The notes under the pieces: model-generated | Told to the model about the DNA's origin: nothing | The model's input: only the letters and a program-made list of their open reading frames with translations | Databases searched by the model: none | NCBI GenBank assembly: GCA_009777845.1 | Contig: WRLD01000001.1 | Span: 120,177-184,176, forward strand | From: Defluviitaleaceae bacterium | GTDB taxonomy: Bacteria > Bacillota > Clostridia > Lachnospirales > WQUN01 | Length of the DNA stretch: 64,000 nucleotides | Direction of reading: 5' to 3' | Position numbers and translations under genes: made by a program | In this document: positions 36,417 to 41,229 of the stretch, piece after piece | Numbering within the stretch: the stretch's first letter is position 1 | How the letters are laid out: each line of letters begins with the position of its first letter

Positions 36417-36500
36417 TGCCCGAGGCCGGACTCGAACCGGCACGTCCTTGCGAACGAGGGATTTTAAGTCCCTTGCGTCTACCAATTCCGCCACTCGGGC
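36417..36500 (-). tRNA. tRNA-Leu (anticodon TAA)
   Basis: The reverse complement is GCCCGAGTGGCGGAATTGGTAGACGCAAGGGACTTAAAATCCCTCGTTCGCAAGGACGTGCCGGTTCGAGTCCGGCCTCGGGCA. It has a 7-bp acceptor stem, anticodon loop CTTAAAA, a long variable arm and a TTCGAGT T-loop. No CCA is encoded. Confidence 0.9.
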
Positions 36501-36597
36501 ATGGGGAAAAGTACACGAGAGGAATTTTATCAAAGAGCGTTGGAAAATGCAAGGGAAATTTTTTGTTTAAACACGCCATACACATGTCACGTTTATC

Positions 36598-36606
36598 TGC
36601 TATACT
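36598..36606 (+). promoter_or_regulatory. Candidate extended -10 element (TGCTATACT) for the WYL regulator gene
   Basis: TGnTATACT lies 43 nt upstream of the ATG at 36649, and the -35 is poor. Prediction by eye only. Confidence 0.3.
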
Positions 36607-36648
36607 ACAAGCGTATTATTATCCGACCCATCTCGGAGGTCACCTAAA

Positions 36649-37545
36649 ATGAAACTCGACAGATTACTTGGCATTGTCACCATTCTGCTGCAAAAGGAAC
36701 GCGTAACCGCGCCGGAGCTGGCCGCAAAATTCGAGGTAACGCGCCGTACTATTGGGCGTGATATTGACGCGCTGTGCATGGCGGGAATCCCAGTCATAAC
36801 GCACCAAGGGGCGGGCGGCGGGCTTTCCATTGCCGAGGGGTTTAAGCTAGACAAAAGCGTACTCACAACGGACGAATTGTCGGGCATTATCGCCGCGATA
36901 AAGGGCATTGGCAGTGTTTCGCAGAGCTCGGGCATAGAGCGGATTTTGGACAAGCTACACGCCAACGCCAGCGCGGTTGTTTCCATGCGCGAGCCAGTCA
37001 TTATCGACCTTGCTTCCTATTATAAAGGACAGCTTACCGACAAAATCGAACGCATTAAGCAAGCCGTGCTAGAGGCGCGGCTAATTGAGTTTGACTATTT
37101 TTATGACAAGGGCGAAGGTCGCCGTCGAATTGAGCCGTATTTTGTAATATTTCAATGGTCGTCGTGGTATGTTTTTGGGTTTTGCTTGGAACGGCAGGAC
37201 TGGCGGCTGTTTAAGCTGCAAAGGCTGTGGAATTTGTCGATGTGTGACGAGCGTTATTCGCCGCGCGAAATACCGCAGGAGAAGCGGGATTTTGGGTTTA
37301 CAGATGATGTCAAGCTAGCCGCGATATTTGACCCGTCCGCAAAATATCAGCTTATCGAAATTTATGGGCTTGATTGCTACACAGAAACGCACGAGGGGAT
37401 TTTATTCGAGTTTGGGTTTGCCAATCGCGAATATTTGGTTAGCTGGTTGCTTAGCTTTGGCGGCAAGGTAAAAGTGCTAGAGCCTGACTATATCGCGGAA
37501 GATTTAAAAGCCGCCGCCAAAAAAATTTTGGAGCTATATAAATAG
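36649..37545 (+). CDS. YafY-family transcriptional regulator (HTH + WYL domain)
   Basis: The N-terminal HTH is RLLGIVTILLQKERVTAPELAAKFEVTRRTIGRDIDAL. The central/C-terminal part is WYL-like (IEFDYFYDKGEGRRRIEPYFVIFQWSSWYVFGFC). Confidence 0.75.
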   Translation: MKLDRLLGIVTILLQKERVTAPELAAKFEVTRRTIGRDIDALCMAGIPVITHQGAGGGLSIAEGFKLDKSVLTTDELSGIIAAIKGIGSVSQSSGIERILDKLHANASAVVSMREPVIIDLASYYKGQLTDKIERIKQAVLEARLIEFDYFYDKGEGRRRIEPYFVIFQWSSWYVFGFCLERQDWRLFKLQRLWNLSMCDERYSPREIPQEKRDFGFTDDVKLAAIFDPSAKYQLIEIYGLDCYTETHEGILFEFGFANREYLVSWLLSFGGKVKVLEPDYIAEDLKAAAKKILELYK

Positions 37546-37606
37546 GACATACTGTTGTCGTGTTTGGTGTGGTAGGATAGGCTCAGTAAACGAATCGAGG
37601 TCAACC

Positions 37607-38167
37607 ATGACATATAAAACCCGAAATTTCCCAGAATTTTCCGCTTGTGGGCTAAACTGCGGATTATGCCCCAACTACTTTAAGCATACCAATGGCGCGT
37701 TCAAATGCCCTGGCTGTGCGGGGGCGGGCTTTTCGGACGTACACCCTGCCTGCGCAGTGCTTACCTGCTGTCAGAAAAAGGGGCTTGAATATTGCTGGCA
37801 CTGCGGTGAATATCCATGCAAACGATATGACAACGCCGACACTGGCGATTCCTTTATCACGCATAAAAATCAGCTTAGGGATATTGAGAAAGTCAAGCAA
37901 ATCGGCATAAACGGCTATATTTCCGAGCAAAATGAGAAAATAGCAATATTACAAAATCTGCTTGCCAATTTTAATGATGGACGAAAAAAATCATTTTTCT
38001 GCGTAGCGGTAAATCTTTTGCAGCTTGGCAATTTAAAAAACATCATGCGCCAAATCGAGAACGAAATAAACCCAAACGACCCAATTAAAGAAAAGGCTAA
38101 AGCCGCCGCTCGGCTGTTTCAAGCTGTGGCGGACGAGCAGGGCATAGAACTAAAACTTAGAAAGTAG
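37607..38167 (+). CDS. DUF3795-like Cys-rich protein
   Basis: The cysteine pattern is CGLNCGLCPNY...CPGCAG...CAVLTCCQKKGLEYCWHCGEYPC. Confidence 0.55.
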   Translation: MTYKTRNFPEFSACGLNCGLCPNYFKHTNGAFKCPGCAGAGFSDVHPACAVLTCCQKKGLEYCWHCGEYPCKRYDNADTGDSFITHKNQLRDIEKVKQIGINGYISEQNEKIAILQNLLANFNDGRKKSFFCVAVNLLQLGNLKNIMRQIENEINPNDPIKEKAKAAARLFQAVADEQGIELKLRK

Positions 38168-38178
38168 GAGGACAGCAT

Positions 38179-39477: not shown

Positions 39478-40044
39478 ATGCCAAGACCGTCAACAAAGCA
39501 GGATTTACTCACTGCGGCGAATGAGCAATTTGAAAAGCTATGGAAGCTAATTGAAACACTGCCAGACGAAAAAAGCGTGACGTTCGACTTTGACCCCAGT
39601 ATCGGCAAGGGCGAGGCGCACTGGAAGCGCGACAAAAACCTGCGTGATGTGTTCGTTCACCTTTACGAATGGCATTCGTTGCTGTTAAACTGGGTGATGT
39701 CTAACCAAAGGGGCGAGGCGAAGCCTTTTTTGCCCGAGCCGTATAACTGGAAAACATACGGTGATATGAACGTCATGTTTTGGGAAAAACATCAAGCCGT
39801 GTCTTATGACGATTCAAAGGAAATGCTTTGTGAAAGCCATAAAAAGGTGCTAGACTTAATCGGGCGATTCTCAAACGAGGAATTATTCGAGAAAAAGGCG
39901 TTTTCTTGGGTGGGCGGCTCGACTCTTGGCAGTTATTGCGTTTCGGTTACGTCTAGTCATTATGATTGGGCTGTTAAGAAGATTAGGGCGTATATAAAGC
40001 AAAGCGTGTTGCCACTAAGAAAGGAAACCAAAAATGGCGATTGA
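39478..40044 (+). CDS. ClbS/DfsB-family four-helix-bundle protein
   Basis: PRPSTKQDLLTAANEQFEKLWKLIE...HLYEWHSLLLNWV...RFSNEELFEKK parallels E. coli ClbS (PSSKEELIKAIN..., RFSNDELY) as I recall it. Confidence 0.65.
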   Translation: MPRPSTKQDLLTAANEQFEKLWKLIETLPDEKSVTFDFDPSIGKGEAHWKRDKNLRDVFVHLYEWHSLLLNWVMSNQRGEAKPFLPEPYNWKTYGDMNVMFWEKHQAVSYDDSKEMLCESHKKVLDLIGRFSNEELFEKKAFSWVGGSTLGSYCVSVTSSHYDWAVKKIRAYIKQSVLPLRKETKNGD

Positions 40045-40648
40045 TTTTAAGAAAACCCAAAAAGACCTCTACCAACCAAAAACCGCTCCCGCTGTCATAG
40101 ACGTGCCAGAAATGCTGTTTATTATGGCAGACGGCACAGGCAACCCCAACACAAGCGAGGAATACAAGTCTGCTGTGGAAATTTTATATGGGCTTTCCTA
40201 CACTATTAAAATGGAAAACAAGGAAATTTTGCAGTATGTCGTGCCGCCGCTTGAGGGCTTGTGGTGGCTTAATGACGGCTCGGACGAATGGTACAAGGAT
40301 AAGGACAAATACTGTTGGACTTCGATGATACGACAGCCCGAGTTTGTAACACAAGATGTCTTTGAATCGGCAAAGACCATTCTCTCCAAGAAAAAACCGC
40401 ACCTTAATCTTTCTCGGGCGCGGCTTGAAAAATTAACCGAGGGGCTTTGCGTACAAGCCATGCACATTGGCTCATATGACGACGAGCCGCGAACAAACGC
40501 CGCAATCATGCAGTTTATGACCGCGCATGGTTATGCCTGTGATATTAGCGGCAAACGCCGTCACCACGAAATTTACCTAAACGACCCACGCAAAACCGCG
40601 CCGGATAAGCTAAAAACAGTGATACGACAGCCCGTAAAGCGTGTGTAA
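40034..40648 (+). CDS. GyrI-like small-molecule-binding domain protein
   Basis: FKKTQKDLYQPKTAPAVIDVPEMLFIMADGTGNPN...VPPLEGLWW...MHIGSYDDEP...HHEIYLNDPRKTAPDKLKTVIRQPV. There is an 11-nt overlap with the ClbS-like gene. Confidence 0.65.
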   Translation: MAIDFKKTQKDLYQPKTAPAVIDVPEMLFIMADGTGNPNTSEEYKSAVEILYGLSYTIKMENKEILQYVVPPLEGLWWLNDGSDEWYKDKDKYCWTSMIRQPEFVTQDVFESAKTILSKKKPHLNLSRARLEKLTEGLCVQAMHIGSYDDEPRTNAAIMQFMTAHGYACDISGKRRHHEIYLNDPRKTAPDKLKTVIRQPVKRV

Positions 40649-40673
40649 TTAGACCTATCCTAGGGAGGGAATT

Positions 40674-41075
40674 ATGCTTATACCACATCTACATTTTAAG
40701 GGGAATTGCGAAAAGGCGATTGCCTTATATGAAAAGGCGTTTGACACCAAGGTGGACGAAATCGTCCGCTTTTGCGACTATGACCCCGAAAAATGGGCGG
40801 GCGATAACCGTATCGCCCACGCCAACATGAAAATTAAGGGGCAGGCTGTGTTTCTTAATGACAATGACTGCATGTTCGGCAACGAGGATACCTCGCTCAA
40901 TTTCCCTGTTCACTTAATCGTGCAATTCCAAACAAGCGGGGAGCTGTTGGCTTGCTATGAAATATTAAGGGCTTGCAGCATAGCGGACAATCCGTTTGTT
41001 AAAACCTTTTACAGCGAGCTAGTGGGAAATTTTAAGGATAAATTTGGTATGCTTTGGGGGTTTATGGTTGTGTAG
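40674..41075 (+). CDS. VOC-superfamily (PhnB/glyoxalase-bleomycin-resistance-like) protein
   Basis: 133 aa. The N-terminus MLIPHLHFKGNCEKAIALYEKAF is characteristic of PhnB-like VOC proteins. Confidence 0.6.
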   Translation: MLIPHLHFKGNCEKAIALYEKAFDTKVDEIVRFCDYDPEKWAGDNRIAHANMKIKGQAVFLNDNDCMFGNEDTSLNFPVHLIVQFQTSGELLACYEILRACSIADNPFVKTFYSELVGNFKDKFGMLWGFMVV

Positions 41076-41096
41076 CCAAAATTCAAAAATCTACAC

Positions 41097-41126
41097 TTGA
41101 CGAACAAGCCCCATGTGGTTTATACT
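41097..41126 (+). promoter_or_regulatory. Candidate sigma-A promoter of tRNA-Phe
   Basis: TTGACG (41097-41102), an 18-nt spacer and TATACT (41121-41126), about 30 nt upstream of the tRNA 5' end. Confidence 0.45.
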
Positions 41127-41156
41127 GCTTCTCGTGTCCAAAAGTATATATTTTTT

Positions 41157-41229
41157 GCCCGAATAGCTCAGTTGGTAGAGCAGAGGACTGAAAATCCTCG
41201 TGTCGTTGGTTCAATTCCGACTTCGGGCA
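41157..41229 (+). tRNA. tRNA-Phe (anticodon GAA)
   Basis: GCCCGAATAGCTCAGTTGGTAGAGCAGAGGACTGAAAATCCTCGTGTCGTTGGTTCAATTCCGACTTCGGGCA folds as a cloverleaf with anticodon loop CTGAAAA. It is 73 nt long. Confidence 0.9.

Follow-up and report, generated by a model that had tools for sequence, protein, structure and literature searches.

A WYL-domain regulator gene and six cargo genes lie between two tRNA genes in a 64,000-nucleotide stretch of DNA from a Defluviitaleaceae bacterium (assembly GCA_009777845.1, contig WRLD01000001.1, positions 120,177 to 184,176), which as a whole is called the window below. The known kinds represented in this locus are PafC/SiwR-like WYL factors, orphan cyclopropane hydrolases (CCHs), orphan ClbS-family proteins, and YafY-headed 'resistance' operons. 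PafBC, the mycobacterial WYL activator of the DNA damage response, shares the HTH-WYL-WCX architecture with the regulator in the window. It is a PafB/PafC heterodimer or fusion of Actinobacteria, whereas the window encodes a single 298-aa protein that presumably forms a homodimer on a full 22-bp palindrome. In promoters without a -35 box, the PafBC element lies in the '-26 region' right next to the -10 box, and the predicted operator reported here is placed likewise; the PafBC motif (RecA-NDp), tgtCgg-N8-TAnnnT, is comparable to TGTCrTGT-N8/9-TAnnnT in the window. PafBC senses single-stranded DNA (ssDNA) and switches on some 150 repair genes, recA and uvr among them, whereas the cargo in the window consists of homologues of small-molecule-directed enzymes which the regulator would activate, with ssDNA suggested as the signal by analogy.

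SiwR of Mycobacterium smegmatis is a WYL factor that adjoins and activates DinB-superfamily genes under genotoxic stress; like PafBC it works from the promoter -26 region and binds ssDNA, with a dissociation constant of ~180 nM (PMC10693628). Its DinB-superfamily cargo belongs to the same structural clan as ClbS. SiwR differs from the window regulator in phylum, operator, and cargo, which comprises two DinB-like genes only, with neither a DUF1706 nor a CCH gene. For the CCHs, Yuan et al. solved the yatakemycin complex with Listeria Lin2189, which has a catalytic pair E157/E185 and an aromatic cage of Y46, W85, W99, F154, and Y187, together with Y54 and Y58; orphan CCHs from non-producers hydrolyze yatakemycin and protect E. 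coli (PMC5684135). No regulator or operon context was given in that study, whereas the CCH homologue in the window resides in a predicted WYL-controlled operon beside a ClbS-like gene.

All of a set of distant ClbS-like proteins (25-80% identical) gave protection against colibactin, which extended to homologues of about 27% identity (PMC8907063). The window protein is likewise a DUF1706 protein encoded by an orphan gene in a non-producer; it differs from ClbS in having His for Tyr55 and in its predicted control by the WYL factor and operator, and its subfamily is often paired with a CCH and a radical S-adenosylmethionine (radical-SAM) gene. Operons of YafY/MarR regulators with EVE and SRPBCC/VOC proteins were read as 'ligand-activated antibiotic resistance' (PMC7641849). 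They too join a YafY-family regulator with small ligand-binding or VOC proteins in what was taken for an inducible resistance module; the window operon lacks EVE, its cargo includes CCH, DUF1706, DUF3795, and isochorismatase-PNPOx proteins, and its operator is defined.

DNA alkylators of the colibactin and duocarmycin types are known weapons between bacteria, and descriptions of resistance in non-producers have so far been confined to isolated orphan genes (ClbS-like, CCH), without their regulation. Nothing in the literature we searched joins WYL or YafY factors with ClbS, GyrI-like, AlkZ, or genotoxin self-resistance, except for a structural aside in the SiwR paper. Undescribed in this literature are the coupling of CCH, ClbS-like, SOS-type radical-SAM, and AlkZ-related genes to a WYL factor, the operator ACAyGACA-N6-TGTCrTGT, the His-type DUF1706 subfamily as a regulon member, and the 'long form' of DUF3795 as ancestral cargo of the regulator lineage.

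We favor the reading that the locus is the regulator-plus-cargo unit of an inducible WYL anti-genotoxin or xenobiotic regulon with a logic like that of PafBC and SiwR, and we rate its chance of being right as about even. A homodimeric YafY/PafC-type HTH-WYL-WCX factor would bind the 22-bp palindrome at two extended -10 promoters without a -35 box, one driving the regulator's own gene and the other the six-gene cargo operon. Its WYL domain would sense a damage signal, most likely ssDNA from replication stalled at alkylated DNA, by analogy with PafBC, SiwR, and the WYL factor DriD, and this signal would switch both promoters on. The GyrI-like enzyme of Lin2189 type would hydrolyze the cyclopropane warhead of alkylators of the duocarmycin/CC-1065/yatakemycin class, and the ClbS-like, isochorismatase-PNPOx, PhnB-like VOC, YjbR, and Cys-rich DUF3795 proteins may hydrolyze, reduce, sequester, or shield against related electrophilic natural products. 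The operon would represent the largest accretion yet seen of a mix-and-match pool of WYL cargo in Clostridia, streptococci, and others.

The regulator and its predicted operator at two promoters

The regulator possesses the three parts of HTH-WYL-WCX (YafY/PafBC-type) factors, which are an N-terminal winged HTH (Pfam HTH_11, 1.1e-12; HTH_PafC, 1.6e-8), a central WYL domain (2e-17), and a C-terminal WCX domain (2e-10). Its closest solved homologue is PafC in the PafBC-RNA polymerase complex (7p5x, 8e-15, residues 2-297). The best orthologues are 74% (L165), 72% (L174), and 70% (L084) identical. R186 and R192 are invariant in the motif R-x-F-K-L-x-R, and K189 is nearly so; these basic residues are possible counterparts of R204 and R207 of SiwR.

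The operator was derived by comparing the upstream and downstream flanks of the closest regulator orthologues (42-74% identity). It is a 22-bp palindrome, ACAyGACA-N6-TGTCrTGT, followed 8-9 nt further on by a -10 box that is often TGn-extended. Exactly two matches to the pattern occur in the 64-kb window, ACACGCCATACACATGTCACGT and ATAGGACATACTGTTGTCGTGT (Table 1), versus 0.01 expected by chance. The position of the first at the promoter of the WYL gene implies autoregulation. The initial annotation had described a six-gene operon with a regulator in front; the tight packing stands, and the 61-nt gap between the WYL and DUF3795 genes is now seen to carry a second promoter with the other operator, so that the unit is a regulator plus a six-gene cargo with two promoters. 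The operator spans roughly -42 to -21 of both extended -10 promoters, neither of which has a properly spaced -35 box, and its right half thus falls in the '-26 region'. PafBC- and SiwR-dependent promoters have this layout; it also suits a repressor.

The orthologous WYL genes carry the same operator upstream, and its position in the gap between WYL and cargo genes is kept in L084, L085, L086, L090, L094, L106, and L174. Screening 2.0 Mb of related loci with up to two mismatches gave 45 operator sites, versus 2-8 in shuffled sequences. All 45 have a -10-like box TAnnnT 5-10 nt downstream, and 32 are no more than 200 nt away from an end of a WYL gene. The other 13 include sites directly before ClbS-like genes (five loci, without an adjacent WYL gene), a YjbR gene (one), and Zn_ribbon_2 genes (two). 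Upstream of a DUF3795 gene standing alone (L176), and of the Monoglobus pectinilyticus GyrI-like gene (L172), there are operator-like sites as well. The same two-operator layout was found in L174, with DUF3795 as the only cargo, and L165 has a lone WYL gene with a perfect operator. The conserved operator is thus predicted to link the WYL gene to its cargo. In L084, three operator copies (688-709, 3034-3055, and 5608-5629) are located at three successive transcription units, forming a multi-promoter regulon cluster.

Residue conservation in the CCH homologue and features of the other cargo proteins

All seven family calls of the initial annotation were upheld by Pfam and NCBIfam, that of the VOC protein only just above the cut-off. 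Its link between the GyrI-like protein and hydrolases of yatakemycin and CC-1065 also survived comparison at residue level. The protein matches Lin2189 (3b49/5x5m) at 2.7e-59 over residues 3-201. At Lin2189 positions 46, 54, 58, 85, 99, 154, 157, 185, and 187, the MAFFT alignment displays Y, Y, Y, W, Y, Y, E, E, and Y in the window protein. Both catalytic Glu residues (E157 and E185) of the yatakemycin/CC-1065 hydrolases, the group of Lin2189, YtkR7, and C10R6, are kept, and the aromatic cage retains five identical residues (Y46, Y54, Y58, W85, and Y187) with two aromatic exchanges, W99 and F154 both being Tyr. Among 41 aligned sequences, comprising Lin2189, the window protein, and 39 proteins from related loci linked to WYL or ClbS-like genes, E157 and W85 are conserved in all, and E185 and Y187 in 40, the exception being an incomplete gene call. 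The start of the gene overlaps the preceding ClbS-like gene by 11 nt. Based upon these alignments, the protein is a well-supported predicted homologue of hydrolases of DNA-alkylating toxins. Of the four annotated records inspected, those of Collinsella aerofaciens (L171), Monoglobus pectinilyticus (L172), and Pusillibacter faecalis (L173) have an ogt-type gene for a methylated-DNA-protein-cysteine methyltransferase within ~1.5 kb of the Lin2189-like GyrI gene, which is a further alkylation-repair neighbor of Lin2189-like genes.

The ClbS/DfsB assignment of the second candidate resistance protein held for family and fold, and failed at one critical residue, since Tyr55 of ClbS is replaced by His61. 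The DUF1706 four-helix bundle was confirmed by Pfam (1.1e-58) and by an AlphaFold2 (AF2) model with a predicted local distance difference test score (pLDDT) of 90. The top fold match in the PDB is ClbS 6anr (template modeling (TM) scores 0.77/0.85), and 6anr and 7mtl are the best PDB matches of the model (TM 0.75-0.87). Sequence identity to ClbS is 24-28%. Tyr55 is critical in ClbS, where the Y55F mutant is inactive (bioRxiv 10.1101/431098), and each of the five solved family members amenable to alignment (ClbS, 5cof, IRC4, DfsB, and 4n6c) has Tyr at this position. On this alignment, the window protein is assigned to a His-type DUF1706 branch, which is large, phylogenetically scattered, and 60-80% identical within itself, and is not demonstrably a ClbS. 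Our analysis draws attention to a large ClbS/DUF1706 subfamily in which His replaces the catalytic Tyr; homologues of the DUF1706 family as a whole were reported from ~95% of healthy human gut samples in a 2026 preprint, with their function uncharacterised. A 262-aa database protein, P0081, matches HTH_11/HTH_PafC and DUF1706, and is either a real fusion of a regulator and a ClbS-like protein or the product of a gene call that ran from a WYL gene into the ClbS-like gene next to it.

No clb genes were found in the 64-kb window, and the ClbS-like gene resembles the 'orphan' class. ClbS, YtkR7/C10R6, and MmcQ were each discovered within the cluster of a producer, which would fit a role of the locus in self-resistance, as part of a genotoxin biosynthetic gene cluster that the organism itself carries. 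The window contains no polyketide synthase, nonribosomal peptide synthetase, or other biosynthetic genes, and the neighbors of the operon are cell-wall synthesis genes, CinA, BlaI/BlaR1, glycoside hydrolases, and surface proteins. Producer self-resistance was therefore rejected as largely refuted for this locus, and is the least probable of the explanations considered.

The YjbR protein scores 76.7 bits against PF04237, versus a cut-off of 30.1, and its gene adjoins WYL in L086 and L102; the 'double-wing' DNA-binding fold of YjbR is a prediction (PMC7641849). The fusion protein consists of an isochorismatase-like part (residues 5-159) and a PNPOx-like part (residues 181-285), with PDB matches 2fhq and 3lqy. 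In the isochorismatase half, read by eye without a residue-mapped alignment, D10 (VIIDIQND), a Lys in FTKYKGNAL, and a Cys in GADAVACV were recognized, and these stretches presumably match the motifs of the Asp-Lys-Cys triad. The fusion recurs in L052 and L084, and stand-alone isochorismatase (L101, 6e-67) and PNPOx proteins (L089 and L106) are WYL cargo elsewhere. The VOC protein reaches 25.8 bits for 3-dmu-9_3-mt (PF06983) versus a cut-off of 24, and stays below the cut-offs of Glyoxalase (18.3 versus 20.6 bits) and NCBIfam YjdN (3.3e-9); its PDB matches are the PhnB proteins 1u6l, 3oms, and 5kef. Searches of Pfam, NCBIfam, and the PDB gave no Ble-like match, and the protein is not of the Ble/Mrd (BLMA, Mrd) binding subfamily. 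Its best matches are of PhnB/YjdN type. A VOC gene follows WYL in L085, and a PhnB-like one follows a ClbS-like gene in L013.

The N-terminal domain of the DUF3795 protein displays an invariant C14-x3-C18-x2-C21 motif, seven further invariant Cys (ten in total), and two invariant His in the alignment, and may be a putative Fe-S or Zn domain. The C14-x3-C18-x2-C21 spacing is also that of radical-SAM cluster motifs. The AF2 model has a mean pLDDT of 64 and is confident only for the helical C-terminal half; the Cys-rich half stays below 50, as expected for a cofactor-dependent domain. Foldseek gave no match below E = 2, and a PDB sequence search gave none. In L175, a homologue of the long form lies inside an apparent defense island (2955-10380), with no WYL gene or operator nearby, among a CAP12-PCTIR TIR protein, two PIN/DUF2281 pairs, an EcoRI-type methylase, and GmrSD/HNH.

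This neighborhood of TIR, PIN, GmrSD, and methylase genes would agree with a WYL-regulated anti-phage defense unit analogous to systems controlled by BrxR or CapW, as would the match of the regulator to PADLOC 'WYL' models (5e-52) and the block of colibactin-triggered prophage induction by ClbS-like genes (PMC8907063). However, the six cargo proteins are all without a match among the PADLOC models, the regulator matches only the generic WYL models, and the cargo includes no nuclease, ATPase, helicase, or toxin-like effector. Anti-phage defense was rejected on the absence of PADLOC cargo matches (0/6) and is highly improbable.

Recurrence of sub-modules in other genomes

Two sets of loci were compared. 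The set anchored on ClbS-like genes consists of 80 GTDB loci, 68 of them assessable for upstream and 70 for downstream genes, and the set anchored on WYL genes consists of 80 metagenome loci, 68 of them assessable. A YafY/WYL gene was found on the same strand within three genes upstream of the ClbS-like gene in 37 of 68 loci, with a CCH-type GyrI-like gene between the two in 16 of the 68. Only one non-adjacent WYL gene was seen in the loci of this set, and the linkage is therefore far above background. Directly after the ClbS-like gene, 18 of 70 loci have a radical-SAM gene of the PA0069/Rv2578c family; both namesakes of this family are SOS-regulated, a LexA site being present at Rv2578c and PA0069 being one of 15 SOS genes. 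Zn_ribbon_2, DUF3788, and nitroreductase genes are further inserts between WYL and ClbS-like genes, and in two loci the ClbS-like gene is followed by a DUF3795-PNPOx fusion, DUF3795, and a Lin2189-like gene.

The closest WYL relatives head variable operons drawn from one cargo pool. Gene orders are WYL, flavin reductase, isochorismatase/PNPOx ... VOC in L084 (70% identity); WYL, VOC in L085; YjbR, WYL in L086; WYL, PNPOx, AlkZ-related in L089; WYL, DUF3795, AlkZ-related in L092; WYL, CCH, radical-SAM, GNAT, MATE in L097; WYL, CCH, isochorismatase in L101; and WYL, TfoX_N, CCH, GNAT-SnoaL-DUF3795 in L104. At least one cargo family of the window adjoins WYL in 36 of 68 loci, two families in four, and three or more in none, which makes the window operon the largest accretion seen. 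The full seven-gene set was found only in near-identical contigs. Co-occurrence of the genes, as proposed initially, thus does not extend to the exact six-gene cargo, and holds for WYL, GyrI-like, and ClbS-like genes together in many genomes. On plasmids, a search found ClbS-like and GyrI-like genes only on megaplasmids or apparently mislabelled chromosome pieces, and the module is not carried there. Smaller regulator-plus-cargo units are widespread in gut and oral bacteria and apparently undescribed.

Among 70 otherwise unlabelled cargo genes, Pfam recognized GyrI-like/Cass2 (9), VOC (6), GNAT (6), DJ-1/PfpI (4), AlkZ-related (3), TfoX_N (3), and flavin reductase (3) proteins. The GNAT, DJ-1/PfpI, and flavin reductase genes, together with SRPBCC, MATE, metallo-beta-lactamase, nitroreductase, and methyltransferase genes in related cargo, would also suit a generic xenobiotic or electrophile stress operon, in which the regulator senses a small molecule and genotoxins are at most one class of substrate beside plant or lignin phenolics, quinones, and antibiotics. 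The earlier reading of YafY/MarR operons with VOC/SRPBCC partners as resistance modules points the same way (PMC7641849), as do the many antibiotics bound by GyrI-like proteins (PMC5684135) and the host, a lignocellulose degrader with GH10 and GH5 enzymes nearby. On the other side, the commonest and most conserved partners have links to genotoxins or DNA damage (intact CCH, ClbS-like, SOS-associated radical-SAM, and AlkZ-related proteins), and the characterized HTH-WYL-WCX factors closest in sequence sense ssDNA. A generic stress operon is the main rival reading, at clearly less than an even chance.

Several points weigh against the inducible anti-genotoxin regulon that we favor. The wider cargo pool holds generic genes (GNAT, DJ-1/PfpI, MATE, metallo-beta-lactamase, and flavin reductases), so that the 'dedicated genotoxin defense' proposed initially is narrower than the data show; AlkZ-related proteins in sister operons (7.6e-69) and the SOS-regulated radical-SAM family support its genotoxin side. 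For the MmcQ/YjbR, VOC, isochorismatase-PNPOx, and DUF3795 proteins, the likeness to resistance proteins goes no further than the family or superfamily. In 30 subfamily members His61 occurs without exception in place of ClbS Tyr55, and hydrolysis of colibactin by the ClbS-like protein is therefore not to be assumed. Lin2189-like genes of Listeria, Collinsella, and Pusillibacter have no adjacent WYL gene. The window WYL protein is only 30-38% identical to those beside ClbS-like genes in most genomes, and the latter may be paralogous regulators. A palindrome over the -35 region is a classic repressor layout too, BrxR and CapW are WYL repressors, and the WYL ligand could be a small molecule.

With these points in mind, we put forward tentatively, as distinctly less probable than the local reading, a widespread anti-genotoxin regulon of gut and oral anaerobic Firmicutes and of bacteria that acquired it. 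A PafC-like WYL factor would sense toxin damage and activate a toxin-destroying CCH and His-type ClbS-like protein together with lesion-repair enzymes (an SPL-like radical-SAM enzyme and an AlkZ-related glycosylase), with DUF3795, YjbR, VOC, and isochorismatase-PNPOx proteins as new resistance components. If this is true, many gut, oral, and insect-gut bacteria share one damage-sensing WYL switch, and the operator is a sequence signature with which its regulon can be mapped across microbiomes. New candidate resistance genes would then be those for DUF3795, YjbR, PhnB-like VOC, isochorismatase-PNPOx, and PA0069-type radical-SAM proteins, a simple two-promoter model would be gained for WYL factors outside Actinobacteria, and communities of the termite and human gut would regularly be attacked with DNA alkylators of cyclopropane type.

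Locus layout, flanks, and composition

The seven plus-strand genes between both tRNAs are separated by 61, 11, 4, 20, -11, and 25 nt, and identical copies of all seven are present on three metagenome contigs. Coordinates, gene order, gaps, and tRNA calls of the initial annotation agree with open reading frame (ORF) calls, ARAGORN, and Rfam. The closest relatives of several genes come from series of metagenome-assembled genomes which we take to be termite-gut series, and the CinA relatives agree with an origin in Defluviitaleaceae. The source is not a rumen organism, the rumen being one of the habitats suggested initially.

Table 1. Position of genes, tRNAs, and predicted control elements of the locus within the window
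Feature	Position	Strand	Evidence or remark
tRNA-Leu(TAA)	36416-36501	minus	ARAGORN; Rfam tRNA 60.2 bits; left neighbor, transcription directed away from operon
Operator copy 1 (predicted)	36571-36592	plus	At the WYL gene's own promoter
-10 box TATACT of P_wyl (predicted)	36601-36606	plus	TG before it (extended -10), 8 nt past operator; promoter scan site 36579-36606
HTH-WYL-WCX regulator gene, 298 aa	36649-37545	plus	YafY/PafC-like
Operator copy 2 (predicted)	37542-37563	plus	Overlaps WYL stop codon, heads cargo operon
-10 box TAGGAT of P_cargo (predicted)	37573-37578	plus	TGg before it, 9 nt past operator; no properly spaced -35
Ribosome-binding site GAGG ahead of DUF3795 gene	37597-37600	plus	Sequence
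DUF3795 'long form', 186 aa	37607-38167	plus	Pfam 2.8e-10
MmcQ/YjbR family protein, 121 aa	38179-38544	plus	Pfam YjbR 2.3e-21; NCBIfam MmcQ/YjbR
Isochorismatase-like hydrolase fused to PNPOx-like/GSP26 FMN-binding split barrel	38549-39457	plus	Pfam 2.4e-28, 1.1e-9
ClbS/DfsB-family (DUF1706) four-helix-bundle protein, 188 aa	39478-40044	plus	Pfam 1.1e-58
GyrI-like CCH homologue, 204 aa	40034-40648	plus	Pfam GyrI-like 3.5e-21; Lin2189 2.7e-59
VOC-superfamily PhnB/YjdN-like protein, 133 aa	40674-41075	plus	Pfam 3-dmu-9_3-mt 1.7e-5
tRNA-Phe(GAA)	41156-41230	plus	ARAGORN, Rfam; right neighbor; own promoter TTGACG-18-TATACT at 41097-41126

The remark in the initial annotation that the region 38549-39060 is AT-rich was confirmed, with a GC content of 0.377 versus 0.491 for the window. 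This region is the isochorismatase half of the fusion gene (GC at third codon positions 0.40), and the PNPOx half of the same ORF has 0.514; only 4% of 500-nt segments are at or below 0.41. The break inside the ORF suggests a recent gene fusion, or replacement or arrival of the isochorismatase module. The operon as a whole has a GC content of 0.460.

The GC contents of the operon and of its outlying isochorismatase half, both below that of the window, are consistent with an opportunistic accretion of horizontally acquired small genes behind a convenient promoter between tRNAs, without coherent function and with only coincidental likeness to resistance proteins. The restriction of the full set to near-identical contigs, the free variation of order and content of the cargo among related operons, and the spread of the ClbS-like subfamily over many phyla with 60-66% identity, suggestive of horizontal transfer, would also agree with it. 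However, many unrelated genomes have the same families beside WYL genes and downstream of this operator, which random accretion would not give, and the region contains no integrase or transposase ORF and no att-like direct repeat flanking the operon. We consider a fortuitous assembly unlikely.

Bounding of the locus by tRNAs was part of the initial annotation. Both tRNAs are real, and no sign of an integrative island was found; neither tRNA is demonstrably part of the system, and an Rfam scan of 35000-42200 gave nothing beyond the two above threshold. The similarity between the flanks comprises ordinary tRNA sequence and a tandem element of 10 nt (AAATCCGCGT), which occupies nearly all intergenic gaps in the window. 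The flanking arrays (35460-35540 and 41274-41555) were considered as att sites or terminal inverted repeats and rejected, the 10-nt repeat being genome-wide. CinA homologues and the contigs of three relatives show no conserved neighborhood, with the best relatives only 56-58% identical.

To the left, a mechanical minus-strand ORF of 316 aa (35635-36585) overlaps tRNA-Leu and is called as 252 aa (35635-36393) on an identical contig; the true neighbor gene is probably the 252-aa form ending at 36393, which encodes a zinc-ribbon protein that looks membrane-associated by eye. Directly downstream of the locus, a BlaI/BlaR1-type pair (41597-43223; Penicillinase_R, 3.5e-26; Peptidase_M56, 6e-47, with C-terminal PepSY) is preceded by a near-consensus promoter, TTGACA-17-TAGAAT, at 41597-41625. 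The wider window (11164-12666, 53880-55487, and 43852-52358) encodes a GH5 cellulase, a GH10 xylanase with CBM4_9, a Cthe_2159-type carbohydrate-binding protein, and a 2292-aa lamin-tail protein, and the GH5/GH10 and carbohydrate-binding context fits a lignocellulose-degrading gut bacterium.

Units of the 10-nt repeat, AAATCCGCG[T/A], match 69 times in the window versus 0.39 expected, in arrays of 2-5 that usually form inverted pairs 40-250 nt apart (e.g. 4170-4490, 18990-19450, 30365-31000, 35460-35540, 41274-41555, 43294-43776, 55526-55826, and 61194-61348). The repeat also yields a spurious sub-threshold Rfam miRNA match at 35454-35525, and may be a REP-like element, a terminator or insulator, or a helically phased protein-binding array.

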